Assembly (NCBI GenBank): GCA_051294375.1
Contig: JBJCIZ010000744.1
Coordinates: 500,264-564,263 of the forward strand
Source of the DNA: Paraspadella gotoi
Lineage: Eukaryota; Animalia; Chaetognatha
DNA: 64,000 bases
Direction of reading: 5' to 3'
Every line of letters begins with the position of its first letter. The stretch's first letter is position 1. The notes under the pieces were generated by a model. That model was not told the DNA's origin. It was given only the letters and a program-made list of their open reading frames with translations, and did not search any database. Below are positions 23,601 to 60,570 of the stretch, piece by piece. A program made the position numbers and the translations under genes.

Positions 23601-26600
23601 ACCAAATGTTAGTCGAGGATCGTCGCGTCCGACGGTCAAATATGTTGGTAGGGAATATCTCTCGCGAATTAGCGAGTAAAAGGTTGATTAATTAATTGAT
23701 TAATACGTATAAATAATTATTAATAAAATGACAGATTACTACAACGAAGGCGGTTATGAGTCTCCCTGCGCGATCGGTTTGAGTGAATTCACGGACAATC
23801 GAGAAGATCGTAAACCTTTCAAAAAAGTCAAGAAATCAAAAATGACTTGACGTTGTATGTACATTGTAACCTAAATAAATAAATAAATAAATTTAATAAA
23901 ATTAAAGAAATTTGAGTAAAGAGTTTGTTTAAAAAAATAACTAAAACAGTAATGTTTTCTAGGTCTTCAACTAAAAATAGAACAGATATGTCAATGCAAT
24001 TTGACTAATAGAAAAGATTACGCTTTGGCTCCCCTCCCCAATCCGCCAAAGTTTTGAAATGTTCACATTCTAGAGTAAACTCACCTCGCCGACGACGGCG
24101 TTCATGACGCCGAGAATCGACTGGACGCGAGCGTCGACGCGTATGTCGTCCCCGGCGCCGCCTTTTAGCAGAAAATCTCGTTCGACGGCGTCGTCGCCGA
24201 CGATGCGAAGGCGACGAGGGCGCTCCTTGGATTGGAGAGATCGGAAGTCGGCGTCGAAGCAGGAGACGCGCGCGTGGCGGAGGGGATCGGGTTTGGAGAA
24301 GGACGTGTATTGGCCGGGGATCTCGAGCTCAATTCCTGGAGGATGAGATTTAAACCAAAGACGATAATAAAGAGACGACAGAGTAAAGGGTGGAAAACAT
24401 TGGAAATAAAAAAAAAAGAGAAAAAGAGGTTCCGAGGTAAGTTAAAACCTTACCCGTCGACGCTGCGTCGAACTCGGCCAACCAAGGCGCCCAGTCCATC
24501 AACTTCATGCTGGTCGGCCCCCGGACCGAAGGCGGCACCTTAAGTTGCTCCAACAAACTGGCGCCGACTCGAAGGAGTTTGCTTCCGTCGGCGATGCAAA
24601 TCTAAAACGAAAATGAATACGTTTGTTGGTTGATTAGATAAATACTAAATAAATAAATACTAAATAAATAAATACTAAATAGAATTCACGTTCGTTTTCA
24701 CGATCAACCTCACAAGCGGGATAATCCCGTTTAAAAGGGGTTCTGACTCCGAGTAAATGCCGCTTACTATGAACTGGGTCACAGGAAACAGAGTTCAAGC
24801 TTTAACGAGTAAAATACTTCTTGCCATGAAACCCAAGATAAACTTGAGTCTCTTTAAATCTTGAGAATAAAAACCATTGGTTTTACTTTTTGGTTCCTCT
24901 TCCTAGACTCGCGGGCCCCGACTTTTCATATCTAAAGAAAATTTCGTCATAACTAAAATCACATAAAAGAATATAAATAAAAAATTAGGCATATAAAAAA
25001 TGTCATGTAATAAAAAATGTAAATATGATTTCAGCTTCTTCCTCTCAACACAATTGCCGGTTTTTTCCCCATCAATGAAAATTCCCCTTCCTCCCTAAGT
25101 TAAACACAAATTCCGCTTCCCATTCTCTATTCGACTTTCCGCTTCTTCCCCTCAACGCAATTTCCGCTTCTTCGCCTTCTCTTTCCCGTTGACGACCTTC
25201 TCCACTCCGTCGACCGTGTGCGAGAGGACGCGCCCATTCCGCTCCACGACGACTTCCGTTCGTCCGTTGTGAACCGTCCTCGTCTTCCTGTTGGACGAGG
25301 TCGTCGTCTTGGTCGTCGTCGTCGTCTTCGTTTTCCCCTCCTCGTCCGACGATTTTATCGTCGTCGTCTGAATGGTGACGATGCCGCCGCCGGCATCACG
25401 GCCGCCGGTGGCGGTGGTGATGTTCATGCTGAAGTTGACGCTGGATCCGAAATCGCCAAAAAACTGACGGAACAACTGGTCGGGATTGGTGAAGCGGAAA
25501 GTTCGGAACTGAGAACCGGGACGCGCGGATTGGAGCGACTGGCCGCGGCCCAAACAATCGTAGTGCTCTCTTCGATCCGGGTCGGAGAGAACTTCGTAAG
25601 CCTCGGCAACCTTCTTAAAGACCTCTTGGGCTCTCTGCTCGTTGTCTGGGTTCTTATCCGGATGCCATTTGAGCGCGGCTTGTCTGTAGGCCTTTCGGAT
25701 TTCCTCTTGGTCCGCCGATTTGCGGACTCCCAAAATTTCATAGTAGTCGTCGCTTTCCACGTTTGACGACATTTTTAAGGCTGAAGACTTCCTGGTTACG
25801 TCTTGTCACGTTTACATTAGATATTCAAAAATAACGTGAAAATGTCGCTCACCGGTTTTAATCATTTTTTTCTCAATGTTAAAAAAATAAACAATCCTAC
25901 GCGTTTTAAAAGCAATAAAAGTACATATATTTTTGTCACCGTTTTGCATTTTCAATAAATGAAGATTAAATATTCTGACTATACTATGACTCGATGAAAT
26001 ACATTGACTATGCATGTATGAACATCGAAAGTTAACACTGCGAAAGCGATTTACTCCAATTTTCCCAAAAAAAACATTTTTTTGGGCATACATACATAAG
26101 TCGCGTTGTTCCTTTCACATTTGGCAAAATATGATTTGAGGTCAACGTTAAAACGACAATGGCGTCCTTAAGCTTACCTTAAGCTTACCCTCCTCCACAA
26201 AAAACTCACCTCCTCGATCTTGTTGAGGATCCAGTCGACGATCCTCTTCCTCCCCCTTCCAATCCTCCTCCCTATCGGCTCCAGTTTCTCCTTCAACTCG
26301 TCCAAAGATCTTCGAAATCTCCCCTCGTCCATCTCCTTCTTCGCCATCGCCGTCCTCGTCTCCGCCACCCACTTCTCCAGCGCCACCTCGGGATCGAAGA
26401 GCAATTCCAAATTGGAGATCATCGCCTCCACGACGGGCAGCTTGGCATCGAGTTCGGCGACGAGGGCGGCGATGTCTGGCGCGAGATCTTTCGACGCCGA
26501 ACCCGCGAAGACTTTGAGCGGGTAGACGACGGCGAAAGGGTAGTCGGCCGCGGCGCGTCGCAACAGCTCGATGACGACCGGCGCCGCGGGGGTGTTGAGA

Positions 26601-29600
26601 TAAGACACGATTTGAGAGGCGAAAGGCAACGCCGTCCACGAGGGAAGCGAAGCGGCGTCGCGGCAAAAAGAAGGCGCGAGATTCGGATCGGCAGCGACGA
26701 GTGAGAGGAGTTTGGGAAAGTGGACGTGAGAAGACGCCGCTTGGAATTTGATGGCCGAGAGAAAAGCGCTGATAATTCGCGACGGAAACGAGGCGGCGTC
26801 GATAGGCGACGGCGTTCCATCGTCGGAATCGACGAATTGTAACATGAAAACGCCGAGAGCGAGAAAATCTTTTCCGTTTGCTCCAGGGGCGGAGGCCGCT
26901 TTCTCCAGAGTTTCGCGCGCAGCATCGAGAAACGCCGCTTCGGCGTCGATCGGCGCCGCTTCTTCGGCGGCGTCGCCTTTGATCAACCGCAGGGTTCCAA
27001 GGACATAAGGATTATCGAAGGCGACGAGATGGCTCCGCAGCTGCAGCGCAGCAACTTGATAGAGATCGGCGAGGACGTTTAAACGAGCAGCGTCGGGCGC
27101 AGCGTCCGACCTCAGATCGCGAATGGCCTTGTGGACGTTGCGTTTTCGGTCCACGCCGCAACGAAACGCTTCCGTCTGTAATTTTCCCGAGAGAGAGAGG
27201 ATCTTGGCCTCCATTTCCTTGTCAGGCCCTGAATGCTTGAGGCCGCGAAGGACACGGAAAGTAAGTTCGAAGGAACGCTGAAAGAGTCCGGCTTCGGCGA
27301 ATTCGAGCATCGATTCCTCGCGGAATCTCGTCGCTTCCATCTCGAATCGGTCAGAGTCGAGGTCGACCCGGCGAAGGACGGAGGCAATCACGTTCGTCAA
27401 AGTCGTTCGATTCGTCACGCTCGTCTGCCAAGAGGACAGATCGTCTCGACGAGGGTCCATCGGACGGCGTCGCCAACGCTCGATCAGGGCCAGGGCGTCG
27501 TCGATGGACGGTCGATTGGCCACGTGAATAAATTCCCCGATCTCTCGTAGATGACGCAGGGTGGAAAGTTGGCGTCGACGCGCGTCGGAAAGGAGTGGAT
27601 CGGCGGCGGACCAAGCATCGACGAAGGCGCCGTAACTCGTCTCGACGTAAAAATCTGCTTTTTCTAATTTCTTTTTCATCGCGGAGACGAGAGCGAGCTC
27701 GTCGGCGAAGGTTCCTTCAAGGAAGGCCCGCTTGGCGGCGTCTTCGAAACAGGTTTCCACGTAGGCAAAGGGATCTCTGCCCTCCGCGTTTCTAAGGCTC
27801 TTCAGTTTGTAAGACAAGAGACGCTCCTTTAGAGGCGACGACCAAATGGCGGCGTCATCGCCAAGTGCCTCGTCCACCTCCTTCCAATCTTGCAGGGCCG
27901 CGGCGCAGCGAACCCGACATTCTTGGATCCATATTTTGGCCTCGGGATCTTCGGGCACTTCGATCTCTTGGTATTTCTTCAACGCGGTTTTGATCATCCC
28001 GTTCGCTTCTTCGTTAACGGCGTCGACCAATGGCGGGCCCCACGATTCGAGCATGGCGGGCCCCGTTGAGGCGTACCTAACCAACAGGGCGGTCGCCTCG
28101 TCTCGATTTTCCATCTCGGCCAACAATCGGGCCAACTGGAGTCCAAGACCGTCGTCGAACCGCAGCCCGGGATCGTCGGGGCATTTCGAGGCTTCGGATT
28201 CGATCTTGCGTCGTTTTGCATTTCGCTCGTTGCCATGGTCACGCGGCGAAGTTAGAGCGAGTTTCTGCAGACAAGCGACGCCATTGAGGAGATTGGACTT
28301 AAAGGATGAGAGGCTCGCGGCGGCGACGAGTTTGGGACGTAACGAGCAGGCGGGGACACGTTCGGAGATAGAGAGAACGCAGGAGATGAAGGAGGGAGAA
28401 ATAAAGCGGCTTTCGGAGAGTATTCGGTTGAAGACGAGAGATAATTCGGCCGCTCGGGCATCGGGACGGCCGGTCAAAATGCTGGCACCGAGCGCGGAGA
28501 ACAAGCGCAATGCCAGGCGTTGATCCCTCGAGGCCAGGCTGAGCAAGGGAACGAAGAGATCGGACAATTTGAGAAGTTGAATATCGGGAAAATCTCCTTG
28601 GCGATACTGACGATAAGCCTGGACGCGCTCCTTTCTCTCCGAGCGAATTCTCCGAATTCTTTCGCCTTTTTTTCGAAGTTGAGACCGAATGGCGGCGTCT
28701 CTGACGTCGTCCGCAGATCCCTTGACGAACCGTTTGGCTCCCACGTCGCCGGAGAGCAGCTTCCGCGTTTGAGAGCCGGAGAACCGATCGCCGGACTTGA
28801 ATTTGGCGGAGACGAGGAGCGAGGAATCCGTGACGGCGGTCTCGATGTCGAGCGAAGCCGCTGGCGCCATCGTCGGTGTGAAAAGCTGCATTCGACTCGA
28901 CGCCTCCTGCGTCGCTTCGATCAGACGAAGAGACGCGGCGCTGCCGACTGCTGCCGTCTGCGTCTCGGCGAAAAGCGGCGTCATCGTCGGCGCCTGTTCC
29001 TGGGGGCCAGGTTGGAGATTGAGCGGAAGAAACTCGCAAGGAGAGAGAGGATGCTCGAAAAAGGGATCGTCGAAACGCGGAGAAGCAGAAACGGATTCGA
29101 GCAAAAGGTTTGAAGAGTAAGAGAGGAAGAGATCTTCTTGATCCGGAGTGTAGACCAGTTGAAATAGAGACCTGAGCCGATCTTCGGGCGAATTCGGTAA
29201 AAGCGAGACCCAAAAGGATTTGGATTTGAGAGCGACGTCGTCTTCCGCGTCGACGAGACCGTCGATGAGCGATTTCTCAGAAATGACGCGAAGTTCCTTT
29301 AATTTGTCGTCGTCTTTGGTCGCATCGTGAACGAGGATCATGATTTCGACGGCGGCCAACTTTGCTTCTTTCGTCGGTAATTTTTCGATCCCGGATGCGG
29401 CCCGAATCATCGTCGACCAACGCTGCACGCCCTCCAGCGAGTGACGCAGGATCTTAAGAAAGACGAAGAGCGCGAGTTGAGCGGCGTCGGCGTCGACCGG
29501 CGTCATCACGAGATCCGCAATGTTTTCTCGAAGGAAAGCGTCGTCGGCGAAAATTTCCGTCAAGAGCGGCGCCGGAAGTCGGTGGAGGATCTCGATGGCC

Positions 29601-32600
29601 GAGAGGCGAATCGGACCAAAGAGACGCGAAAAGCGGGAGGCGACGCGCGTGGCGAATCGTCGACAACTCGGCCACGACAATAACTGCGGAAAGTGTTTGG
29701 TGACTCCAGACAAAACGTGAAGGAAACTCTCGAACTTTTCCTGTTCGCTTCGCTCTAAACAAGAGACCACATGGTCGTCCACGCGACTCTGCAGAGGCGG
29801 GGCGATTTTTTCGACGAAAGATTTCAAGACGAGACCCAAAACTTCGGAGAAACACTCCAAATTTCTTTTCGCCGTACCGCGAAGGTGATCGGTCAACGCT
29901 TTGATTCTTTTCGCCAGAAGATCCAAAGACGTTAATTCTTCCTTCGGCGCCGAAGGGTAGCCTTCCAAGAGCAAAGTGGCCAGGGCATTGGCGCCAGTGA
30001 CGCAGACGCGTTGGTCGCCGGCTTCGTTCTTCCCGATCAGTCCGTAGATGACGTCGTAGGGAACCTTAAAATCCGGCGCCCCTTTCGCGACGGAGAGCAA
30101 AGTTTTGAAAACCTCCAGATTGAATCTTACGATGGGGTTTTTTTCGTGGTGCAAATGTCGCGTCAAATACTTGGCCAGGAGGGACAAGTCGTCAGAATGA
30201 TCTTTCTCCTCGAAGGAGAAGGAAAAGAGGAGGAGGAGCAAATCCATGGAGAAATAACTCGGCTCCGCGAGTTCGATCACGAGTTTCGTCAAGGGTTCGA
30301 CGAGGCGACGTCCGTAGCAGCGGACGTGAGGGGCGAGATTTAGCAAGAGCTTTGCGACGAAGACTCGGGAGTTTTTGTCCTGCGTCGACGTAGTGTTTAG
30401 CTTCTTGACCAAACACTCGAACCATCCGGGAATCACGTCGCCGGAAGTCGACGGCGTGATGTCGGTGGCGAGGTCGATGACGAGATCCATCAACGGCGCC
30501 ATCACGGGATGACGGTTGACGCAGTCCATCTCGATTTCGACGGCGCCGGAATCCGCAGCGGCCAAAGAATGAAGCTCGTCCTCCGCGACGTCGGCGATTG
30601 ACTGGGACGATTTGGGAATCAAGTCGTAAGTAGAAACGTCCTCCATCAGGCTGCTCGTCTCTCCGCCAAAAAACTGCGTCGATGGCGCCGGATCATCGGC
30701 GATATCTCTCGCGCCGGATCGAATGGCGCGAAAGTGGCGCCGTCGGGAGAGCGCCTTTTCCAGTTCCACGGGGAATTCGAATCCTTCGTCCTGACGAATC
30801 AGATTAGCGGAGAAAGAGTCGAACTTTGAAAATACAAGTTTCACGGCAAACATTTCAGACTTTTGTCCGCGCTGGGTGACGGCGACGACGGATAAAAGGG
30901 CGTTGAAGGCGGCGACCCTGAGGCGCCAATGGGCGTGGCGCAGGCGCGGCGGAGACGACTCGTGCTTCATTTCTTCCCATCGCTTGGAAGCGACGTTGGC
31001 GAAAAAGGCGCGAATGTTTTTCGAATCTCCGTTTTTGAACTGAAGCGGAATGGAAGACGAATCATCGGTCAAATACTCGACGGAGAAATAGAGGAAAAAG
31101 AAACGAATCAAGACGAAGCATCCGGCGGCGACTGCCAATTTAGCGACGGCCTCCAGTTCCGAGTCGGCGAGAGAATCGGAGGAAAGGCATCCTTCTTTGA
31201 TGGAATCGAGATGTCGGCTGAAAAACTCGTTGACGACTTTTGCTCTGGCGCCACGAAGAAGCGGCGAGAGGAATGCGTCGACGGCCTTGACGCGCGCTTG
31301 CGTCGCCATCTCTCGCGTTGACTCCTCCCGGCGGAAAACGGCGTAGACGGCGTCGAGAATGTCCGCTTGGCGAGGCGCCGGTTGTTGGCGTATGGCGGCG
31401 ATCAGCGAGGTTTCGACAGCGCTTTCGGCGTCGACGTCGACGGCGCTGCCGATTCGAACGGAGAGATGAACAAGGCCCTTCAAGACAAAGGCAGAACCGG
31501 TTGCAGAGAAGACGTCGAGCATAGCGGAGAGACAAGGAGGCCGTTGATCCTCCGACAAAAAAGCGATGAACCGAAGGAGAGATTTGTCCAACACCTCGTC
31601 GAATCCGGCGACGCCGACGAGGATGCCGAGCAAAAGTAGCTTGATTTCCAATGGTTCCGTCTCGGCGGCGTTCAGTAATCGCGCCGCCGATTCCGCCATT
31701 GCCGGAAACGAGACGTCGTGGCGCTTGGCGAGGTTCGAAAAAGATTTGAATATCGTCAGCGATATTTCTTTGTCCGTTTTAGTATAAAACATTCTTTCTA
31801 CGTCGCGCCATCGTCGTCGGAACACGTCGGCGACGACCTCGGATTTTCTCTTCTCTCCCGCGGAGAAGTCGACGACGTCTCGAAGAATCCCGCGGGCGAA
31901 GTCGCGGTCGTCGATGCCGTCGACGGCCTCGTCGACGAGAGAATCCAATGCGGCGTCGAATTGAAGAACGAAGGTTAATAGAGAAGATTTAAAGGCGGAG
32001 TAAAAAGAGTCGCCTCTTGTTACGACGCCATCCCGTTTACTTTCGACGCGTTGAGGATTGAGCAGCAAACGCGAGAGAAATCGTCCATCCACTTTGGACA
32101 CTTGGGCCGAATGCAATTCGGAAACGAGTTCGAGGATTTTCGAGCAGACGACTTTCGTCGACGGGGAGAGAGTCGAGTCGACTGAAACAGAAGAGACGAC
32201 GACGTCGAAAAGACAAGGAAGCGCGGAGACGCTCCAATCCGAATCGAATAATTCGGGGACGACGCGGACGAGACACTTGAGTCCCACGATTCGTTCCAAC
32301 TTTTCGGAATTTTCCTCGAGGGCGGAGACAACACCAGAGTCTAAAAGCGAAGCGACAAATCCTTCTTCTCGTTCCATTCGAACGACGATCTTGAACTCCT
32401 TCGCGATCGGCGCGTGATTTTCGGCCAAGTCTTCGATGAGACCGACGGTTTCTTCGCCGAGCTCTCGGGGGCCGCGACCGCGTGCCGAGGAGAAGCCGAG
32501 AGACGAAGGAGAAAGGAGACAATCGACGAGAAGCCTCGTCATCTTTTCCTCGATGATTTCGGAGAGAACGAGAGAGTCCACGCCGCTCTTCGTCAAGGAT

Positions 32601-35600
32601 CGAAGAAAGAGAATTAGACGAGCGACAACGCGACATTTCAATTGACGAAACATCGTCTCCCGCCGACGAAACATTAAGCCATTCACTTCTTCGACGAAAT
32701 GACGAATCCACGTCAAAACCCGGGGTGCGGCGGAAGAACCGACGCCGAAAATGGCGCCGGGACGCAAGAGTTTGGCGCCGAAAAAGGCCGCGTAGCAGTC
32801 GAGGGCGGCGTGGAGGTCGACGAGGAACCCGTGGTCACATCGGAGAGGGTCATTATCGATGGGAACGGTTTCAGCGTCGACGCGGTTGCGCTCGAAGAGA
32901 TCCACGAAGAACTGGGGGCCGGATTGGGCGAGACGCCGCCCGACGAAAGTGAGAGGGTCGGAATTTGCCGCGGCGAGCGTCTCGGCGAGAAACTCGAGGA
33001 TCTCCCGACGAGCGACCGTCTGTCGGACGCCGACGCGGCGCAACAACCAGTTCGACAACGCCTTCAACGACGCCGCCTCCATTCCGCGAGGCAGTCGGCG
33101 CCCGCGGGACTCCTCGTCTTCGCGAGACAAGAGAGGCCGAACGTCGGGATGTTGAAGAATGCGGCGAAGGTGGCGAAGGGAAGTTTGGAGTTCTTTGACC
33201 ACGACGGAGGAGGAGGAAGAGGAAGAGACTGGATCCTCGTCATCCTCGTCGTCGTCGTCGACGAGACAAAGAGATTCCAAAAACCCGGTGACGAGATCGA
33301 AGAAGAAGAGATTAACTGAAGAAAAGAATTTAGTACTAAGCTAATAGTTGTAATATAAAAGCAATCATATTTCTTACCCAATTTAAGCTTTTCCCGAAAA
33401 ACGGTGCTGATCCGATTAAAAGCCACTGCGGCGCCCATTCGCTTCCCGGCGTCGGGATGCCGCGCCATCGCAGTCACGCGCTTCAAAAGGCCCTTGGCGC
33501 CCACGCCGTCCGCCCGATCGAACCAGAGGAAGAACTCTCGAAAACAGTCGGCGGCGACCGACTGCAGACGGGAATCTTCGGACGCCAACGAAGTCGTAAC
33601 TGCCCCGACGACAGCGAGGGCTTCGGCGCTATTAGCGTCGCGACCGGAAGTCAACCAGTGGACGAGCGGAAAGGTGAGTTTACGAAAGAGGCCTTCGACG
33701 AAGGCGTCTGTGGAGACGCAGAGGCGCAAGAGAACTGGAAACACGCGTTCGAAAAACTTGTCCATCGGCGCCTGACGTCGCGCCTCGTCCGGCGTGGTGG
33801 CACTGCGGCCGATGGCGAGGACGACGACGCCGTGAAGCAGCTCGCAGGCGGACGTCTTGGTCTGACGATCGACGGCGTTCAGCGCCAAGTCGCAAACGAG
33901 AGGCAAGAAGTCATCCAGATAAAGAAAGACGCGGGTGGATGGAAATGGAATTTCCAGGCGCACGTGCTTGGCCGAGTCCCAAGCGAAGACGGCGTCGCGA
34001 TCGACGGTCGTCAGCGAGGAGGCGGCGCCGGATCCGATCTTGCCGAGAAAGGCGAGGACGCGACGGACAAGATGGGCGGCGCTGGGGGAGTCGTCACCGG
34101 GGTCGACGCCCGCTTGACGCAAGAGTCGATCGCGCTGGGCGTAATGACGAAGAGCCGCGTGAGAGACGTTCTTCTGACGAGATTTGGTAGAGGACGCCGT
34201 CTCGGGCGTCATTTCGGGCGTCGTCTTCGACCCGGCGCCGATCAAGAGTCGGGATAATTTAGTCAAAACCTGGGCGCGAAGAAAAGGCGCCCAGAGTTTC
34301 TCCGAGAGGCGCGACGTCCAGTGCTCCAGTGAGTCGAGAGCCGATAAAGACAAGGAGGCGTCGCCGTGATCCAACGCCGCCTCCACGACGAGAGACGCCG
34401 CCTCGGGATCGCCCTCGACGACGCGGTGCGGTGCAGAGAGCAACATCTTGAGTAGCGAGTTAAGGAGCTCGCCGTGGAATGCTGGTAAAAAGATTTTTAA
34501 AAGATATTGCCATGTTTGTCTTTTTTTTTTTTGCTCGTATTTTAAAACTTCGCTTTTTTTATCATGAGTTGTAATCATTTACATTTTAACATTTCACGTA
34601 TCATGGCAATATGTATCATATATTACGTATTATGAGTCATTTCGTTTCCTCTTTCCCTTTTATTTTTCTCAATTTCCCTCCATTCACTTCCTCACCTTTG
34701 ATCCGCTTGACTTTTCTTTTAAAGAATCCGCGGCAGAGATCGAGAAAATCATCGTCCTTGTCGTCGTCGTCGTCGTCGTCGTCGTCGAAAACTTGGACCC
34801 TCCTTCCGACGGAGAAGAAGAAGGCGAGGAGTTTGTAAAAGGCGGAGACGAGGGGAAAGTCGAGGGAGGCGACGACGAGGCGCCGGCAGACAAACGGCGC
34901 CCACGGCTTCAACGCCGCGTCGGGAACGCCGTCGAGAGCGGCGACAAAAGTCTCCGCCAGGTTGATAACCGTCTGCCAATCCCGAGGCGTCGAAGCGACC
35001 AGGCGTTCGAGAGGATCCGGGGTAGCTAGAGAGATGTGCAATTGTACAATGATATAATATATATTTGATAAACTGCTATTGTCACCAAATGACTGACCTT
35101 CCTTTTCCTCGTCCACGGTCGTCTCCAAATCTAGCCGATCGACGATGAAGACGACGGCGTCCAAGAATTGGGCGAGGACGGCGCCGACGAGACGCTGCGC
35201 CGCTTCCGGGGAGCAGACGCCCTCGTAGTCATCGCGGAGCAGATGGCGCCAGAGTGGGAAAAAGCGGTCGCAAGTGAGAACGGCAATCGAGGACGTCGAA
35301 GCGGCGTTGAAAGGCTTGAGATCCGAATCAAGCGCAACGTCGGATTCCGGGGTGAGTGACGCCTGATAACCAACCATGGATTGTCCCCTGGCGGCCATCG
35401 TGTTTTCCCATCCCGTCGCGGCCAGCGTCTCCACTGCGTCGTCGTTCCCCGCTGATTCCGCTGCCGCGACCCGCTGACGTCGAGAAGCCTCGGCCTTTGT
35501 TGGGAGGAGACAGACACGCATGAGACTTTGGCGGACGATCCGTTGGAGGATGAGAGGAAATGAAGGCGTCGTTGACTGCAGCGTCGAAAGGAGATTGACG

Positions 35601-38216
35601 AGGGCTGAGAGGAACAATTCAAAATTTGGAATAAAATGCGTAGTTTTGAAATTATTTATCTGTACCTTATCACAAGTTTCCTTCCCTCGATTATCGCTCA
35701 ATCTCATTTGCATAATGTCGTAAATGTCGTAAAGAACACACAGTTCTAAATATATAGATTGTGTAGCGGTAGTATTTCATACCCCGCTACTCGTCCGAGA
35801 ATCAGCAGCACCTATGGGGCCGGAGGTAGCACGAGCTCCTCCCAACCCAAAGGACTCGGGTTCGTGCCCTGCTGATTCACACAAGTAAAAGCGGGACGGG
35901 GAGTCCAACCCACCTGTAGTGACGGACTACAGCCCGATCCGAAGTTCGGGACCTTGTGTGCAACGGACGGTGAACTGCTCGCGGCATCGTCTTCCACAAT
36001 TGATTATTTAACCGATACCCCTTTCTTAGTATCAAACCCCCAATTAACATGGAAATAAATGTCAAAAAGCCCGAGCACCACCAGCCAGCACCCGCACGTC
36101 CAAACGACCGACCTCCGCATCCCGTCCGCGAATGACTCTGCGCCAGATGAGGAAATTCTCGAAAGAACTTTCCGACGATCCTCTCGATCCTCGTCGCCAG
36201 CGAGGCGGAGACGTCGTCGAGGGCGGCGATCACATGACCGAGGGAAAGGAGAAAGTCGGGGAACAGGCGCAGCCGTTCCCATGGCAACGGGGAGTCGGAG
36301 GAGACTTGGATTTCCGCCTCCGTCGCCGAGAGGACGCGTTCGAACATGAAGCTCATCACGTCGGACTCGCTTTCCTAAACGTGAGGGGAACGAAAGGAAT
36401 CGATCGTTATTGCGTAATCGGTATATTATGTATTCTGTAATTCGCCGCCTCGGGCAGAATTTAATTAATCAATTTTTCTCTTTTTCATTCTTCCACGCCC
36501 ACCTTCGTAAACTTCTTGGCGACGCCGGCCAAAAGGGAATAAGTCTTGACGGCGCCGGCGCGACGATGGGCGCGGAATTGCGAAGACGTGGCGCCGGAGG
36601 AGGTGGACGACGAAGCCGAGTGGGTTTCGTCGAGGAATTCCGAATCTCGCAAGCGACGCTGAAAAAAGTGGAATATCTCCAGCGGAGAGTCGACGCCGTC
36701 GTCGAGGGCCATCTCGTCGTCGGCGATAACCTCGGCGATGATCTTGACGCACTCGTAGCTGCAGGTCGACGCTAAAGAAGACATTTCAGCATTTCTGAGA
36801 AAAGACAGACATGAAAATTGAAAAAAGTCAAACACGGCCGTTGACAATCTTCAAATCTTTTCGACCCACTTGTGATTGATCCAAAACCCCAAGCGATCCA
36901 TCAACCGCTCGTAAGCGGCCACCAAGGGACGCCGCAGAATGTAGGCGTGGCGGGCGAGAAGCTTGAGGCCTCCGCGAACGACGTCGTATGATCTAGTGGC
37001 GCTCTCGACTTCCTTGGAGACAGATTTGAGGGCGAGATCGAATACGAGGCGAGTCTCCTCCTCGGTCAGAGTGGAGAATTGGTAGAGGACTCCCGTCAGG
37101 CCGAAGAGGCATCCGCTAGTAACGAGATAGGATTAATTATTATTATACAATATACAGTACACGACTTACTCCCTTCTAGTATTGGAAATTAATTAAAAAA
37201 GCCAATCACTTGTAACCAAAAAGGAGTTTGTCCACCTTCAAACACGATTTCAAAACCTCGAACCTGCAAATGTTAAAGTCTCTGGACTCGAGCACCGTCG
37301 TCTTCTCCATCGTCGATCTCAGCGTCGAGAGGAAAAACCTCTTGAGTGTTTCGGCGAAAGGACATCGATCGGGGAAGAGCTCCGCGAGGAGGCCGAGAAA
37401 GTCGTAGAGCTCCTTGAGCAGAGAGTGTTGGGTCTTCTTCACCTCCAAGCGAACGTAGGCGAAGAGTTCGTTTCCAAGTTTAGCCACGTCCAGATCAGGG
37501 AAATCTGGAGAAAATCATATCACGTCTAGATATACATTTTCTCAGCATCATATCAGAGAGAGAGAGAAAGTCAGAGAGAGACAAAGATCTTGAATTAAAA
37601 GTAAAACTGATTGGCTGAGTGACGTTCACCACACAGCTTGGATAACAATTCTTACCCTCTCCGTCCTTCCTAACGGAGGCCAGGCGCAAGAGTTTGCGCA
37701 AGCACTTGGTCGCTTCGATCTTCACCGGAGAGGCGTCGCAGCATTTGATCAGCGTCGCGCACGTCGTCTTCAGCGCCGGCGCGTGAGGATGCAGCGAAGC
37801 GGCGTCGCGCTCGGCCACTTTGCCCAAGTAGGTCGTCAAAAAGGAGAGGAGGTGCTTGAGGACGTCTTTTTGTAGGTCTTTGTTTCGGTAGACGTCGGGC
37901 GATTGGAGGAATCGTAGCACGCCCTGAGAAGACGAAAGGGAGAAATGAAAGGAATGGGGGGGATTCCCACATTTCCTAACTTGATGATAAGAATGAAATG
38001 AGAGTTTGCCCAATCACACCCACTCTTCAAAAAACCCACTACCTTGTTTGCATCGAAAATCATCAAAGTGCAAAGTCGAATCTCCTTTTTCTTCTTAACG
38101 TCGTCGAGCGCCGACGAGATCAGCGCCGCCACGTGGTGACCCAGGCGCGGGAGGTCGGCTCCGCAATCGAACAGCGCCGCCAGACCCGACTCCACCTTGT
38201 GAACACCGGACGTCAT
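20627..38216 (-). CDS. PRKDC: DNA-dependent protein kinase catalytic subunit (~15 exons, including a ~7.1-kb exon at ~33316-26209)
   Basis: [31 protein letters not shown] and ATQ cluster, [13 protein letters not shown] region, kinase [13 protein letters not shown] and [21 protein letters not shown] end [11 protein letters not shown]. Confidence 0.95.
21241..21377. repeat. Intronic minisatellite, ~22-24 bp unit (caggataagaaggatttataaatgtt-like)
   Basis: About five imperfect tandem copies. Confidence 0.85.
22436..23850 (+). CDS. Probable five-to-six-exon orphan gene nested antisense in a PRKDC intron
   Basis: ATG at 22436 with donor gtaagt at 22509; open GC-rich exon ~22593-23045; further frame-consistent AG/GT exons at ~23148-23278, 23344-23422, 23483-23647 and 23735-23850, followed by AATAAA runs. 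One donor (~23046) is non-canonical or mis-sequenced. Confidence 0.55.
25152..25772 (-). CDS. Intronless DnaJ/Hsp40 (DNAJB6/B8-like) nested on the same strand in a PRKDC intron
   Basis: [40 protein letters not shown]-domain, F-rich linker [17 protein letters not shown]-rich C-terminus. Confidence 0.9.
35762..35998 (+). mobile_element. Solo-LTR-like element 2 (tRNA-like head plus twister-like ribozyme) in a PRKDC intron
   Basis: TGTAG...CCACA termini; exact 4-bp TSD attg at 35758-35761 and 35999-36002; tRNA-like region 35800-35877 with A/B-box-like motifs closed by aatcagcag/ctgctgatt. Confidence 0.75.
35878..35960 (+). ncRNA. Circularly permuted twister-like ribozyme
   Basis: cacacaag-taaaa-gcgg-GA-CGGG-gagtc-CAA-ccc-ACC-tgtagt..actaca-g-cccga-UCCG-AAGU-tcggg-ac-cttgtgtg. 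T2 is AC/GU, compensatory relative to copy 1. Predicted cut between 35906 and 35907. Confidence 0.7.
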
Positions 38217-38534: not shown

Positions 38535-41500
38535 TCATTTCAAAGTTTGAAACTTGCACTGATTGGCGGAGTGCTTCGTCGTGCTCAGAACGCTCCCGGA
38601 ATCTTTGTGCAGAGTCAACCTTCCGTGACATCCGGGTACTTGGCACTTGAAGTGCAAGTAGGGCACTTTGACCGACTCGTTTTTTTGATGGTAATACTTG
38701 AATCCTTTCCACTCGCAAGTGTCGTAACCTGTTTCAATCCAAGCCAAAATTTAGATGCAAATATTTTCAGAGGGGAACAATTTTTCGTTTATTTCCGAAG
38801 ACTCTCCGAATCACATAATTTAAATATACTCGTTTTTAAATTACCCGAGTAGTTAACGACAAAATTTAAATCGGTTGGTCTACGTCATTTACAAACTATG
38901 TTTAAACAAACAAACAAACATGATTTAATGTAACTTCTCTCTTCTCTCACCCATGACGGAATTGTACTCGATGAGCGGCCTGTCCCTCTTCGCCTCCGCC
39001 CGATTCTTGTTCAGGCTCAACTTGTCGCCCGCAAATTCCACCACCTTGGGCGCGACCTTCCGCTTGGCGAAGACGGGAGACGCCCAGTCGAACTCGTCGA
39101 TGTTGTTGGCGAGCGTCACCGTCTCGCAGTTTATCTCGCTGCGAGAGGGGAAAAAGAATTGTTCAAATTGTAATAAACAAGATTGTCAAAATTGTATACG
39201 AAAGTCATTAAACTCGATATCGTCCTCGACCTGTCGGTCAATCTCGACGATCCGTCGTCGTCCGCGAGGGAGATGATCGGCACCAACGGTTTTGCTGTCG
39301 TTGTTGTTGTTGTTGTCTCCGCCGTTCCGGTCGAATCGGTCGCAGAGTCCTCCAAGTCGTTCCGGAGAAGGACGGTGGAGACGGCGGCCTCCGTCTCGGA
39401 AACGAAAGGAGAGACGACGTCGGCGGAGACGCTCGACTCTTTCGACGTCTTTCTCTCGACAACCGTCGATCTGGAGGAAGAGAAAAAAGAGGAAGCTCGA
39501 AATGAGAACCTCCACCCTTTTGTTTTTGTTGGCAGAGTGATTAACTATGGTTATTGGTTTACAATCGAGTGTTGTTTTTCCCAAGATATTTCCCTCCTTC
39601 ATGCACTAAACATTGTTTAGTAAACAAGTATTCTAGAAAAACGTTATCAAGAGATAAAATAAATAATCAAAACTGCTACAATATGCAAATGAAATTTTTA
39701 AATCTTAATTGAAATAAAAGAAGAGCATCACTCACCCTTTCTCCTCGGGCGCCCTCTTGGAATAAGTTCTTCTCTCCGCCGCCGTCGACGACGACGACGA
39801 CCTTTTCCGCTTCGCCGCCTCCTTCGTCTTCATCCTCTTCGCCCTCGAGGCGGCCCTCTTCTCCGCGATCGACTTGGAGGAGACCGACTTGAGGAAGGAG
39901 AGAGGCTTCCCGCCCGACAAGCGCGGCGGCGGAGGCTGCGGCTGCGCCTTCCGACGCCTCGGCACCGTCGGAGGCGGCGGCGCGGAGCTGGGCGGCGTCA
40001 CCGGCGACAGAGAGACGGGGATGGCGGGGAAGACGGAGGTGATGGATGAACCGGGGGAGACAGAGTTGGAGGCGACCGAGGGCGAGACGGTGGTGGAGGA
40101 GGCGGCGGGGGTGGAGACCACCTCGTAGGCGCCAGTGGCGCCGAGAACGCCGTCGGGGAGAGCGTCGACGGGAGAGGGTATGGGAAGGACCGTTTCGCCC
40201 ATGAAGGGGTCGCCGCCTTTTTGGAAGGGAAAATCAGGACGATATTAAAACGGTTTTAGGGCGACAACAACAAATCAGGACGATATTAAAACGGTTTTAG
40301 GGCGACAACAACAAATCAGGATGATATTAAAACGGTTTTGGGGTGACAACAACAAATCAGGATGATATTAAAACGGTTTTGGGGTGACAACAAATCAGGA
40401 CGATGTTAAAATGGTTTTTGGGGAGACAACAACAAATCAGGATGATATTAAAACGGTTTTGGGGTGACAACAACAAAAACGACGACGAAAATCGATTACG
40501 TCAGAACCCAGACTTTTAAAATGATTTACCAGACAAAATTGAGGCGATGGGGAAAATGGTGTGAGAAAGAGAGGTTCCGATCGAAGTCGCTTGACCGAAA
40601 GGCTGCGACGGCGCGAAGATCGGAGCCTGATCCGACGGCGCAGAAGTTTGGGGTGAATCGGAAGTGAATGAAGATAATTCAATCGGAAGAGAATGGGGAA
40701 GAGAAAGGGGTAGAGATTGGGGTAAAGGTTGGGGTGAAGATTGACAAAAAGAATGAGAAATGGATTGTGGAATTGATTGGGAAAGAGAATGAGGATTAGA
40801 ATGAGAAAGAGATTGAGAAAAAGATTGAGGAATAGAATGAGAAAGAGAATGAGGAATAGAATGAGAAAGAGAATGAGGATTAGAATGAGAAAGAGGATTA
40901 GAATGAGAAAGAGATTGAGGAATAGAATGAGAAAGAGATTGAGAATGAGGAATAGATAGAGAATGAGGATTAGAATGGGAAAGAGGAAGGGAATGAGAAA
41001 GAGGAATAGATTGAGAATGAGATTGTGCATTAGAAAGTGAAAGTGATTGCGGAATAGTTTGAGAAAAACCTTGTGAAAAAGAATGAGAAAGAGGTTGTGA
41101 AAAAACTTGTGGCAACGACTGAGAGATAGATTGAGGCAGGCCTTGTGAAACTGATTGGGTCGACGGCAAAATAGGTTGGGAAAAAGAATGTGGAATCGGG
41201 CATTTCGAAGAATTTCGAGATCGTTGCGTTTGCTGCAACTGCTGCGAAGGCTGAATGAGCTGCTTCTGCTCCATTTGCTGCAGAGACGGTGTTTTGGCGA
41301 TCAACGCGGAAACGTTCGTCGCCGTGAGGTTCGTGAGTTGAAGGGAAGACAACGTCTTCTGCAGCTGCAGCTGGTGAGAGAGAGACAGTTGCTGCGGCGG
41401 GAGACGTATTTGAACGGAGCCTGGCGGCAATGTAGAGAGAGGTCCTGAGGGAAGCGATAAGTTTTCGAGATTAAAATAATAATTTATTTTTAAATTTTTT

Positions 41501-47190: not shown

Positions 47191-50100
47191 CAGGTGCAGA
47201 GGGCGGTGCCGTCGGGGGAAACGCGAAGGAAGGACACCCGATTGTCGTGACCGTAGAGGGTGTTCGTTCGAGTGCCTGTCAGGGGATGGCGGTGATTTAT
47301 TTTGGAAAATTGGATGACTAATTTTGACCACCTGACTGACCTTCTCAAAATCGGACTTACCTTTGAGGGTATCCCAGGCATTGACGGTGTAATCATTGTA
47401 GCCGGAGAAGAGGAGGCGCCCCGACAGGGAAAAATCCACCGAGGTGCAGCCAAAGAGGATGTGAGGCTTTTCGTACACCATCACCTGGTGGAAATAAATA
47501 TTATTTCACCGTAAAACCTATTTGAATTATCTGTAATCCACTTTTTCGACATTAAATTTACAATATAACCACTTCTTGACCGCCTCCACTGTACGAATGA
47601 GTTAGAAAAATTCAATCCTTTCATACGATTGAAACATTCTTTGAGATATTATACTACTTCATTGATATACTCTTAGAGTGAATAAACGAGACTGTGAGGG
47701 AGTCTTGATGGAAAGCTTGATGGAACCTGCAATGTCATTCTTGTAAGAGCGATGGAGGCATTAAACTACCAAAGCCTGTCGAAAGTCAGGGACAAGATAG
47801 CTTATTTATTAAATGAGTGGATAATTTTTATATTGGTTTTGGAAAAATAAAATATACTCAGCAACACAATTGGGCTAAAAAGGGCGGCAAGAGGGACTGC
47901 GTAATGCTTTTATTAACCCGCAAATAATTTTAAAAAGTCAAAAATTTAATTTAATTTAATTGAATTACTTCGCGGTCGGCACGAAGGTCGAAGAGTCGGC
48001 AGGTGGCGTCGTCGGAGCCGGTGGCGACGGCCTCTCCGCTCGGATGAAATCGGACGGAATTGATGTCGGCGGAGTGCGCCTCGAAACTCTGGACGGCCCG
48101 CCCGGTCCGCATGTCCCAGACCAGGGTCTGCTTGTCGCAGGAGGCCGAAGCGAACACGTTGTCACTTTCTGTTAAGGAAAAAATGATTATAACGATAACG
48201 AGATGAGAACGATGATTACGATGATAGAATATTCATCCTGACGAGCATCAGACCGACCGACCTGGAGATATATGAAGACTCATGATGTCGCCCGTGTGGC
48301 CGCTGAAGCCCTGAATCATTTGACTAGATTCAACGTCCCACAGAGCGCAAATCGAGTCTCCACCGCCCGTCAGGAGTTGTTGATCTGAACCGACGATCAA
48401 AAAACAACGGACTTCAATCCTTTCTTTATTCTTCCATTTGACGCATTTCTCGGAAATCGAGAGAATACATACGAACCGGATTTCAAGAAGGCGCAGCACG
48501 ACATGTAGGAAGTGTGGGTGGCGACGGTGTTCTTCTTGGAGGCGACGTCGACGTCCAAGGACAGCGGATAGACGGTGCATTTGTTGTCCAGTCCGCCGCA
48601 GGCGACAGCGTTCCCTGGAGACGTGAGTAAAATAGGGCATTGAGTTATTTAATCTCATTTGCATATTGCAGCAGTTCAGATTTTTTTCTTATATCTTTTG
48701 ATCGGTTTTTGTAGAAGCTTTATTTTACTATTTTACGCATACTTTTATTAAGGTTTAATAACGATTTGGTTTTCCAAATTATATTTAGATATTTCATCGT
48801 AGTATTTTTCGCCTAACCTGAGGGCGCGTATGCACAAGCCATGACCCACGTGGTCGGCATCGAGACAGCATGCTCTTTATTCGTTGTAAATCCATCCCAA
48901 ACAATCATTTTACCATCCTGGAAAGGGGACATGAAGAGAAAGGACGATATTTTAACATTCAAGATATTTATTGGAGACGGATTCGCGTGGACGCCGATGG
49001 ACTCGCTATGAACATTTATAAACTCATTTTAGTTATTAATCTGTTTCCCTTTATTAAAAGCTTGAGGGGTATTGAAGGCGTGAAGAAATAAGAGGGAAAA
49101 TAATGGTATATTTCGCGAAGAGTAGAAACGAGAGAATGTATCGCTAGACAAAATATACTAAGGGGGAAAGAAGAAGAAGAGGAAGAGGAGAATTGGACGG
49201 CAGGATAAATCCTCCTCTGGAAAGAGTATCATGCTATAATTAATAAATGTTATGTGTCAGAATACATGATTCTTGGTTCGCGTCTCCCCCATACATATTG
49301 TGCGCCTTTGTATCTCTCTCAGATCCATACAATAAGATTCTAGCATTTGTCAGCAGCGCCGTTCGCTTGAAGCCGTGATTGGTGGGCGCCGTTATTCCAG
49401 CTCCCCCTCGACGTGGGCCATCTTCGCCCACTGGTGATTTACATAAAATCTCCAACAGTGGTGCATCAGCCAAAAATCGAACCCAGGGCGCTCGCGTGGC
49501 AGGCGAGCATTCTACCACTGAACCACCGATCTTCCCGGATGATGCACCACTGTTGAAGATTTTATGTTAATCGCCAATGGGTAAAAGTGGCTCACGTCGA
49601 GGGGGAGCTGGAACGCATCGGGATCTCCAACGGCGCCCACCAATCTGGGCTGCGAGCGGACGGCGCTGCCGACAGATGCTAGAGTCTTATTGTATGGATC
49701 TGAGAGAGATACACAGGTGCACAATATGAATGGGGGAGACGCGAACCAAGAACCATGCATTCTGACACGTATCATTTATTAATTACAGCACGATATTTTT
49801 CACTAAAGGGAAACAGATTAATAAATGATAATTAAGCAACGGCAATCAAAATCAAAATCTCCTCCAACATATTTTGACAGACATAGAATCTAAACGAGAG
49901 TGGAATCTACCATCACCTGTGAGGATGAGACCACATGTCTTTTGTCCTTGACGCACCAGTCCATGCAGAGGACTTTGCCGAGATGGCCCTTGAGGACTCT
50001 CCGGATTTTGATGCCCATCAGAGGCAGAGAGTCGAGGCGCTCGGCGACGGCGATTAGCGACGCGTCGTCCAGTTTAGTCTTTTCCTGGAAATATGATGTT

Positions 50101-59400: not shown

Positions 59401-60570
59401 ATGAATGGATAATTTTTATATTGTCTGTACCAATTTCATATACATTTTTTTTTTTTTTAAAAATATTTCTCATTATTAAAAATTATAATGAATTATAAGA
59501 TCGAAAACTTTTAACAAAAAACGAAAATCGATTTTAAAAATTTTTAAATTTTTTTATATCTCGGATCGGAATTCCCGGGTAACGAATAAAAACTTCTGTT
59601 AAGCGAAAAATCATTTATTTATTAGCGATTTTAAAAAACGTACGAGTTGTTCGAGATGAATAAGTGGAAGAGATCTTTAATAAGTGGAAAGCAAGACCTT
59701 TAATAGTGGGAAGAGACCTTTAATAAGTGAAGAGACCTTTAATAAGTGGGAAGAGACCTTTAATAAGTGGGAAGAGACCTTTAATAAGTGGAAGAGACCT
59801 TTAATAAGTGGGGAAGAACCTTTAATAAGTGGGAAGAGACCTTTAATAAGTGTGAAGAGACCTTTAATAATCTATTTATTCGTTTTTTTAGTAGCCCTTA
59901 ACTAATATCTAAATTAATAAGTAAAATAAAACCTGATTTAGCAACAAAGGGCCTTTCCAGTAGATGCAAATCATTCCGACGCAACCGAAATTCCAGATGA
60001 CGAAGACGGCGGTGAAGTAGTCGAGGGTAACGTTGTAGGCCTTGACCACTTCGCTATCAAGGTAAGATTAAGACTCATTACAAATTTGTTTGGTTGCTAG
60101 GAATATGAAAACAACAACCACCTAGAAAAACCACCAGCCAAACGATACAAACAAAAACTAAGAAAACAACCAATTTGGAAGACGATCAATGAATCAAACG
60201 GCTAAAAAAATCAAGAAATCTACCAAGAAAATGAGTGATCAATATAACAAATAAAATGCCGAACAAATTACTCAACAACCAACCAAAAACTAAAACAATT
60301 GGATCTACAATCAAGAAAATACAAACAACCAATCATGAGCCATGAATCCAAACCTCAGGTAAAAATAGGAGAAGAGAAAGAGCATCATGAGAGAGGCGAG
60401 GATGAGCCAGCCGTGGATGAGCTTGTAGCAGCCCCATTTGTAGAGGAAAACGAGCAGCACCGTCATGACGACGATGACGGAGATCATGATCATCGCGTTG
60501 ATGAAGGCGTAACCCACTTTGGCGGCGCTCGATCCCGCGCTCTCTTCCCGCATGGGCGTGTAGAGTCTGA
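56403..60570 (-). CDS. PSEN: Presenilin (5' part truncated by the gap)
   Basis: [71 protein letters not shown]|[17 protein letters not shown]; both catalytic Asp residues are present. Confidence 0.95.
57837..59657. mobile_element. ~1.8-kb insertion with imperfect terminal inverted repeats splitting an intronic minisatellite of presenilin
   Basis: Left end atctcaaaacaaacctcgtacg and right end cgtacgagttgttcgagat are inverted; the insertion is absent from the duplicate intron (62790-63100). Confidence 0.7.
59659..59870. repeat. 20-21-bp minisatellite gggaagagacctttaataagt (also 57800-57835 and 62790-63100)
   Basis: Tandem copies without unique spacers. Confidence 0.95.

Follow-up and report, generated by a model that had tools for sequence, protein, structure and literature searches.

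A very abundant short repeat with a twister-like fold and a possibly tRNA-derived head in a genomic window of the chaetognath Paraspadella gotoi

The subject of this analysis is a short repeat in a window of 64,000 nucleotides of the chaetognath Paraspadella gotoi (NCBI GenBank assembly GCA_051294375.1, contig JBJCIZ010000744.1, positions 500,264 to 564,263 of the forward strand), and all coordinates given below are those of this whole stretch. Positions 35762-35998 on the (+) strand form one complete 237-nt unit of a short non-coding dispersed repeat, here called copy 2, which belongs to a less abundant subfamily, and a second complete unit, copy 1, lies elsewhere in the window in the opposite orientation. 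With a probability of roughly 0.4, copy 2 is read as a duplication-flanked copy of a very abundant non-coding interspersed element of ~235 nt, in which a decayed tRNA-derived head is joined to a type-P5 twister-like fold.

The locus and the repeat unit

Copy 2 lies in antisense within an intron of the DNA-PKcs gene. The features of the locus and of both copies are as follows.

35605-36112, (-) strand: GT..AG intron of the DNA-PKcs gene, containing copy 2 in antisense
35758-35761: left target-site duplication ATTG, with the right copy at 35999-36002; the four outer bases are identical and the fifth differs
35763-35790, (+) strand: 5' terminal hairpin of copy 2, GTAGCGG/CCGCTAC with inner GTAT/ATAC, from minimum-energy folds
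35792-35797, (+) strand: 5' strand of the predicted long-range stem of copy 2, pairing with 35964-35969 and enclosing the head and the twister-like domain
35800-35877, (+) strand: head of copy 2, a predicted three-way junction closed by 35800-35808/35869-35877 (folds and covariance model)
35815-35826, (+) strand: A-box-like segment of copy 2, TGGGGCCGGAGG, with C as the run majority at 35818
35838-35853, (+) strand: 16-nt block CCTCCCAACCCAAAGG, invariant between the copies and called 'anticodon-like' in a preliminary description of this DNA
35859-35869, (+) strand: B-box-like segment of copy 2, GGTTCGTGCCC, which fits only a loose pattern and lacks the A of the consensus GGTTCNANNCC
35879-35959, (+) strand: type-P5 twister-like domain of copy 2, with the predicted cut between 35906 and 35907 (folds and covariance model)
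35879-35885/35953-35959, 35893-35895/35909-35911, 35914-35920/35926-35932 and 35933-35937/35946-35950, (+) strand: predicted helices P5, P2, P3 and P4 of that domain
35960-35998, (+) strand: 3' part of copy 2, comprising the 3' strand of the long-range stem and a variable tail ending CA
11398-11631, (-) strand: copy 1, a complete 234-nt unit of the most abundant subfamily (contig ends and folds)
11598-11527 and 11523-11450, (-) strand: head and twister-like domain of copy 1, with the predicted cut at 11500/11499
11590-11579, (-) strand: A-box-like segment of copy 1, TGGTGCCGGAGG
11536-11546, (-) strand: B-box match of copy 1, GGTTCTAGCCC, which fits GGTTCNANNCC

The ends of the units were mapped by aligning contigs of public sequencing runs to the window with a match cut-off of at least 80%; X1 and X5 are DNA runs, and X9 is a run labelled 'RNA?' that contains a spliced contig. 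The interior of copy 2 is matched by 1093 contig pieces in X1 and 417 in X5, and its unique flanks are covered once. Likeness stops at 35761/35762 on the left (48 pieces in X1, 28 in X5) and at 35997-36000 on the right (69 and 24 pieces, respectively), which places the exact unit ends at 35762 and 35998. Beyond these ends the contigs pass into AT-rich flanks without a consensus (agreement 0.41-0.54). The termini of copy 2 are TG...CA (TGT...ACA), and its tail ends CCACA. DNA contigs of both X1 and X5 cross from the unique flank into copy 2 on either side, indicating that the insertion is present in those samples.

Pfam detected DNA-PKcs domains on the minus-strand frames flanking copy 2, and one X9 contig joins 35604 directly to 36113, which identifies 35605-36112 as a GT..AG intron. 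The gene itself extends over 20627-37000 on the minus strand with very long exons, one open frame reaching 2368 aa, and a DnaJ-domain frame (25152-25805) is situated between the kinase/FATC frame (20627-21262) and the remainder of the gene.

Copy 1 is flanked by the 4-bp duplication CTCT (11632-11635 and 11394-11397), and loose contig ends in X1 fall at 11398 in 108 pieces and at 11631/11632 in 118/117. Its subfamily accounts for 17874 (X1), 3380 and 3921 contig pieces in three DNA runs, and its summed word depth exceeds that of its flanks by a factor of thousands, a sign of abundance and not a copy number. Its termini are TA...CA, with a tail ending CTTCA. Blastn aligned the two copies with 69% identity over a 142-nt core; GGNGCCGGAGGYA occurs exactly twice in the window (35816-35828 on the (+) strand and 11577-11589 on the (-) strand, against 0.25 expected), CCTCCCAACCC is exact at 35838 (+) and 11557 (-), and the blocks GCCGGAGG, CCTCCCAACCCAAAGG and GGGTTC are invariant between the copies. 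These shared words and blocks bear out the A-box-like, anticodon-like and B-box-like segments which the preliminary description regarded as common to both copies. A covariance model (CM) of the head built from copy 2 alone recovers copy 1 with 30.1 bits (E 2.4e-5), and a CM of the twister-like domain built in the same way recovers it with E 1.1e-10; nothing else in the window falls below E 0.1 with either model. A third copy was found in the window neither by blastn (word size 7) nor by two unfiltered CMs, the next best E being 0.19-0.39. Outside the source, the head pattern matched seven loci in metagenome contigs, all by chance (no following GGGTTC and no twister), the head and twister patterns gave 0 matches in viral contigs, and the twister pattern gave one chance match in prokaryote genome contigs, in an apparently bacterial coding stretch.

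Several variants were observed among the contigs related to copy 2. In a few contigs of approximately single-copy depth, short A-rich inserts replace the twister-like core (35889-35962) or a long A run follows 35889; these are twister-less derivatives of the element. At head position 35831, G dominates in X9 (10696 of 12900 summed depth, 6 contigs) and amounts to ~4-6% in the DNA runs, and some of these X9 pieces pass into unlike flanks; the G could mark either a head fragment within an abundant transcript or a distinct subfamily. The summed depth in X9 is also higher over 35808-35875 than over the rest of the unit. This was not used, as contig depth cannot rank the parts of a unit; contigs of the abundant copy-1 subfamily may also align to the shared head core, and some X9 pieces leave at 35819 and 35872. 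Gaps in the X9 coverage of the intron were likewise given no weight as evidence. Along copy 1, the ratio of X9 to DNA depth is flat over the whole unit.

A very abundant small repeat (11645-11795) is located 13 nt from copy 1 and occurs again at 2044-2093 and 58300-58371. It is bounded by the inverted sequences GTCGGATCTGC and GCAGATCCGAC in the manner of a miniature inverted-repeat transposable element, the summed depth of its core (11645-11688) is above even that of the copy-1 element, and most of its other copies run past 11688 into a (TTAA)-like stretch.

Predicted RNA fold of the two copies

Folded independently by minimum energy, both copies give a 5' hairpin, a long-range stem that encloses the head and the twister-like domain, and a variable tail. 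The z-scores of the whole-element folds are -3.51 and -3.35 (0 of 200 shuffles as stable for each copy), those of the head folds are -4.38 (0 of 200) and -2.66 (3 of 200), and RNAalifold found six compensated pairs on a plain MAFFT alignment of both copies. Every statement on covariation made here is bounded by these two copies, the only ones readable as sequence. Two copies that are ~69% identical thus share the same predicted architecture. The 5' hairpin starts one or two bases from the 5' end in each of them, and that of copy 1 (7 bp, 11629-11610) is unrelated in sequence to that of copy 2. A 5' hairpin following a TG terminus, as first described, is present in copy 2 (TG at 35762-35763), whereas the hairpin of copy 1 follows TA. 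Compared with that of copy 2, the long-range stem of copy 1 (11609-11602/11443-11436) has one pair with both bases exchanged and another with a single base exchanged.

The folded head of copy 2 holds a long arm (CCT.TGGG/CCCA.AGG and GGAGG/CCTCC) and a short GGG..CCC hairpin, and the GGAGG/CCTCC hairpin is common to both copies. In the minimum-energy folds, the head is closed in copy 2 by the 9-bp stem AATCAGCAG (35800-35808)/CTGCTGATT (35869-35877) and in copy 1 by the 7-bp stem GCGGCCA (11598-11592)/TGGTCGT (11533-11527), which includes two G.U pairs. The earlier claim that the closing stems are unrelated in sequence yet both pair is therefore confirmed: the closing stem of the head is kept by pairing while its sequence is replaced. 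As the head CM mis-threads the closing stem of copy 1, the head stems were read by eye and from the folds, with no pair count. A spacer of 0-3 nt separates the head from the twister-like domain.

The twister-like domain is laid out in the order P5, 3' strand of L2, P2, L1, a short hairpin-closed P1, the cut site, P2, the L2 dinucleotide, P3 and P4. P2, P3, P4 and P5 all form in both copies, and the ends of the domain lie within P5, with the P1 side closed by a hairpin. When the two copies are aligned with the model, pairing holds in 58 of 60 cells, and eight of the 30 pairs differ in both bases: four belong to P5, two to P3 and one each to P4 and pseudoknot T2. In slid-partner controls, only 25-40% of cells pair and 0-1 pairs are compensated. 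Both copies form pseudoknot T1 (L4 with L1) as CCG:CGG, and T2 (L4 with the L2 dinucleotide) consists of AC:GU in copy 2 and of GC:GC in copy 1. At the predicted cut site, the run majority at 35906 is T, corresponding to the usual U-A site; copy 2 in the window has C. A hammerhead was also considered, the motif CUGAUGA being present on the antisense strand of copy 1, and was rejected: the motif is absent from copy 2, and the accompanying GAAA of copy 1 lies in the flank.

P2, P3, P4, P5 and both pseudoknots can form here as in the canonical twister (PMC5408937; PMC8501958, Table 1), and likewise the L2 dinucleotide (GC or AC) pairs with the last two letters of L4 (GC or GU) and the majority cut site is U-A. 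About ten nucleotides in L1 and L4 of canonical twisters are more than 97% conserved (PMC5408937; PMC8501958). Of this set, one L4 and one L1 letter differ here in a compensating manner: L4 reads UCCGAAGY instead of UCCCAAGC (PMC8501958) and L1 reads GACGG instead of GAGGG, so that the change of C to G in L4 together with that of G to C in L1 amounts to one flipped T1 pair. In addition, the near-invariant G-C pair that extends P4 is A-U here, P2 has three pairs rather than four, and the 3' strand of L2 is 1-3 nt longer. The domain is twister-like by structure, and its self-cleavage is a prediction.

Within the copy-1 subfamily, variants that reach at least 5% of depth are located in loops (11484, 11485), in the tail (11418-11433) or at stem sites where the pair is kept, as at 11527 and 11530 (G.U to G-C), 11597 (C-G to U.G) and 11524 (G.U to A-U). 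The exception is 11465, the flipped L4 letter, which varies at 4-10%. This pattern weakly suggests constraint on the fold, since transitions often keep pairs.

Origin of the head and spread of the element

At working thresholds, the head is not recognised as a tRNA: the Rfam tRNA model (RF00005) has no match on the element strand at its gathering score, and ARAGORN at default calls neither head. With both detectors negative, the tRNA similarity above background that the preliminary description ascribed to the head was essentially not found. At a threshold of 85%, ARAGORN reports 11526-11598, exactly the stem-closed head of copy 1, as tRNA-Gly(CCC), one of 12 calls in the window, only one of which passes the default threshold; this threading contains two mismatches in the anticodon stem, and two of its three D-stem pairs are G.U. 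At 80%, it reports 35799-35880 as tRNA-Val(CAC), one of 50 calls in the window. A working tRNA or tRNA-like gene, with its 3' end made by the downstream ribozyme as in phage tRNA-theta ribozyme units, would place a stem-closed tRNA-sized domain directly 5' of a self-cleaving-type fold, as in the predicted folds here. This explanation is nevertheless extremely improbable: the head fails all tRNA detectors at working thresholds, the predicted cut falls 27-29 nt past the stem and not at the discriminator, and a dispersed repeat with many thousands of contig pieces does not resemble a decoding gene family. The only default-threshold tRNA call in the window is a Gly-GCC at 49459-49532, with 32.3 bits just above the Rfam cut-off of 29. 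It is centred in long inverted repeats (49222-49800) with arms of 172 and 77 nt that are 87-89% complementary, and the whole possibly represents a foldback element with a tRNA-like core at its centre.

The dimensions of the head and its promoter-like segments make its descent from a tRNA, followed by decay, likely. The stem-closed head of copy 1 measures 72-73 nt from stem start to stem end, and a 5-bp CCGGG/CCCGG hairpin with a 7-nt GTTCTAG loop can directly abut the 3' strand of its 7-bp stem, although a different pairing is favoured in the minimum-energy fold. In copy 2, the stem comprises 9-10 bp and the hairpin at the T-arm-like position 3-4 bp. The B box has the consensus GGTTCGANNCC, and the A box, TRGCNNAGTGG, is located 30-60 nt upstream of it and ~10-20 nt from the transcript start, which in a tRNA-derived SINE (short interspersed element) coincides with the 5' end of the element. 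The pattern GGTTCNANNCC occurs three times in 128 kb of strand, 2.4-2.5 occurrences being expected, and one of the three is the B-box match of copy 1. The A-box-like segment of copy 1 lies ~42 nt upstream of that match and fits the A box only in the relaxed form TRGYN6GG. The relaxed A and B patterns at a spacing of 25-45 nt occur once in the window, in copy 1, against 0.04 expected.

The interpretation in the preliminary description is partly supported, and the best reading is a ribozyme-bearing non-autonomous retroelement that resembles a SINE and carries a decayed tRNA-derived head. The head would have begun as a tRNA, as its length of 72-73 nt, the T-arm-like hairpin abutting a 7-bp stem, the B-box match and the A-box-like segment suggest, and it may serve as an internal promoter of RNA polymerase III (Pol III). 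Its invariant blocks may have been kept through the binding of transcription or copying machinery, and the element would spread via an RNA copy, as schistosome hammerhead SINE-like elements do. The ribozyme is predicted to cut within the hairpin-closed P1 region, and a cut at this position would leave the two halves joined by P5, P2, the pseudoknots and the long-range stem. Among the joints listed, head-to-tail and inverted junctions occur only in one or two contigs each; with so few of them, partial tandems of the Penelope type are not the rule. No reverse transcriptase, integrase or endonuclease domain was found with Pfam in 54 window frames tested (8 and 46 of the 156 listed). A more elaborate version of this idea, in which a new ribozyme-bearing retroelement with integrase-like 4-bp duplications joins a tRNA-mimicking junction to a P5-permuted twister with a flipped T1 pair, the two being clamped by the long-range helix so that self-cleavage nicks rather than separates the RNA, and in which the nicked tRNA-like particle, instead of a linear Pol III transcript, is recognised by host tRNA enzymes or by a borrowed reverse transcriptase or integrase, is rather unlikely. 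If it were true, such an element would stand apart, as a 'twister retrozyme/SINE', from hammerhead retrozymes and the twisters at the 5' ends of RTE elements.

The following observations weigh against a SINE-like element with a tRNA-derived head. The Rfam tRNA model finds nothing at E<=10 on either head, even when 85-90 nt are searched alone, and the relaxed ARAGORN calls lie among 11 and 49 others in the window and thread the two copies differently, as Gly-CCC and Val-CAC with a different arm taken as the anticodon arm. The folds contain no cloverleaf, that is, neither a D arm nor a 5-bp anticodon stem with a 7-nt loop. The inner head fold differs between the two minimum-energy structures, and because the inner core is sequence-invariant, covariation can support the closing stem only. 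The motif patterns for the A and B boxes were relaxed after the sequence had been seen. The A-box-like segment lacks the consensus A and starts at unit base 42 in copy 1 or 54 in copy 2, too far for a type-2 promoter to start transcription at the unit end; copy 2 lacks the A of the B box, with C as the run majority at 35865, and the most conserved block (16 nt) lies outside the promoter boxes. Neither copy has an A-rich or simple-repeat tail. No TTTT is present in the sense strand of either copy, and 1063 and 1835 of 2000 shuffles (53% and 92%) are equally free of it; its absence was rejected as evidence concerning a Pol III terminator, being not significant against the shuffles. The Rfam twister models have no match at E<=10 in 501, 301 or 85 nt, so that of the earlier claim of a head placed directly upstream of a twister, the abutment on a twister-shaped fold stands, while the name 'twister' holds by structure only. 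Finally, the fixed 4-bp duplications, their length being read from two copies, and the CA 3' end resemble the products of an integrase more than those of insertion by a long interspersed element (LINE).

Several of these points are shared by the alternative that the head is neither tRNA-derived nor a Pol III promoter. It would then be a structural RNA domain, acting as a platform for a copying enzyme or as a folding partner of the ribozyme, with A and B boxes that arose by chance and transcription by read-through from host genes. The absence of a tRNA signal in Rfam and of a cloverleaf agrees with such a domain, as do the strongest conservation in a 16-nt block outside the promoter boxes and the conserved long-range stem that clamps the head and the twister-like domain as one fold. 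Moreover, X9 contigs with element copies continue into unlike flanks, suggesting that these copies are transcribed together with their surroundings. However, chance would have to produce the length of 72-73 nt, the T-arm-like hairpin, the exact B box and the A-B spacing of copy 1 together, the boxes being expected 0.04 times per window. The heads of SINEs are mostly of tRNA origin and are often missed by tRNA detectors, which counts further against a purely structural head. We regard this alternative as somewhat unlikely.

The target-site duplications and termini bear on another alternative, in which the unit is the solo long terminal repeat (LTR) of a miniature non-coding LTR retroelement, of the type of terminal-repeat retrotransposons in miniature (TRIMs) or retrozymes, with the Pol III-like cassette and the twister inside the LTR. 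Transcription would start inside the LTR, the ribozymes of two LTRs would release a unit RNA that is circularised and copied, and an integrase would insert the DNA. Duplications of exactly 4 bp in both copies and the TG...CA ends of copy 2 fit this scheme; an internal start would remove the problem of an A-box-like segment 42-54 nt from the unit end, and a few head-to-tail junctions exist, from 35998 to 35760 (X9, X5) and from 11631 to 11396 with two extra letters (X1). As in the LTRs of plant retrozymes (PMC7761336), the predicted cut falls mid-unit instead of at an end, and solo LTRs can far outnumber full elements, with nine full-length elements among hundreds of loci in N. benthamiana (PMC9695139). 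Against it, neither copy has a direct-orientation partner nearby, the two copies of the window lying 24 kb from each other in inverted orientation; neither 35998 nor 11398 is followed by a TGG-type primer site, and the units have no purine tract before them; the flanks of hundreds of contig ends contain no shared internal sequence (agreement 0.41-0.46); copy 1 starts with TA and not TG; and neither a reverse transcriptase nor an integrase domain was detected in the 54 window frames tested. A primer-binding site was also considered in the TGGNGCC with which the A-box-like block starts; it does not follow any unit end, and this remained no more than an idea. A solo LTR is thus plainly unlikely, and the placement of ribozyme and promoter inside an LTR by the preliminary description is not upheld by the window, where no LTR pair, primer-binding site or polypurine tract was found. 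Given the duplications of 4 bp and the T(G/A)...CA ends, an LTR-type origin retains some probability.

Further repeats in the window concern neither copy. A 1.45-kb direct repeat (2089-3541/9436-10898) is 98.6% identical and flanks ~5.9 kb; its ends are not TG...CA, no Pfam match was found in 14 frames tested there, and either an LTR pair or a segmental duplication may account for it. Tandem arrays are found at 40231-40474, 40677-41138, 59666-59891 and 62874-63119; they comprise a 41-bp unit present in five copies, a 12-nt periodic stretch within an open frame, and two arrays of 21 bp separated by 3.1 kb.

Relation to known systems and implications

Transcription of tRNA-derived SINEs relies on an internal promoter of type 2. 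The SINE-like reading of the present element draws on a tRNA-sized 5' module, B-box and A-box-like segments at tRNA spacing, a length of ~235 nt and very many copies. Unlike a tRNA-derived SINE, however, the unit has 33-38 nt including a terminal hairpin before the tRNA-like part, lacks an A-rich or LINE-like tail, is flanked by fixed 4-bp duplications and has a ribozyme-type fold as its body. Among TRIMs, Cassandra carries a 5S cassette in its LTRs. In contrast to plant LTR retrozymes and TRIMs, no paired repeats, primer-binding site or polypurine tract were seen here, the fold is twister-like and not of hammerhead type, and the promoter-like part is tRNA-like and not 5S. What the unit has in common with plant LTR retrozymes (PMC7761336) and TRIMs is the central position of a ribozyme-type fold or Pol III-type cassette, which in those elements lies within a short terminal repeat, together with duplications of 4 bp and the lack of coding sequence.

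The SINE-like elements of schistosomes, which carry a hammerhead and appear to be transcribed by Pol III, resemble the present unit in being short, abundant and non-coding and in combining a promoter-type region, putative here, with a self-cleaving-type fold (PMC6765202). In elements of the Sm-alpha type, cleavage of multimeric transcripts leaves the promoter part at the 3' side of the unit (PMC6765202). The schistosome elements differ in that their ribozyme is a hammerhead, whereas the unit here bears a twister-like fold of type P5, and in that they occur in tandem arrays, whereas the units here occur mostly as single, scattered copies that have sharp ends and 4-bp duplications (PMC6765202). 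A twister-type fold in a retroelement is also known from the 5' ends of Perere-3/RTE elements (PMC8501958; PMC7761336), and the P3 start CUGUAG and the GUAAA-like L2 of the Schistosoma mansoni examples (PMC8501958, Table 1) are likewise found here. Those twisters are of type P1 and lie at the very 5' end, where the target duplication forms P1 and cleavage sets the element end (PMC8501958). In contrast, the fold described here is of type P5 and is internal to a non-coding 237-nt unit, with the predicted cut at unit base 145/146.

In none of these closest systems, namely schistosome SINE-like elements, Perere-3/RTE twisters and retrozymes, do a twister-type fold and a tRNA-like domain occur together within a short dispersed unit. 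In the literature searched, which left subscription journals and repeat databases outside its scope, no description was found of a short interspersed element in which a twister adjoins a tRNA-like head. As judged from the two sequences, selection appears to have kept the fold of both the head and the twister-like part while the stem sequences were replaced. The finding also illustrates that one flipped pseudoknot pair can hide a large family from scans with homology models.

The only biological role so far shown for eukaryotic twisters, according to PMC8501958, is the 5'-end processing of RTE-type retrotransposons in a schistosome. If the fold described here cleaves, the family would represent a second natural context for the twister besides RTE and would be to the twister what the SINE-like elements and retrozymes are to the hammerhead, and it would provide a test case for the cooperation of a tRNA-like domain and a ribozyme in retroelement RNA.

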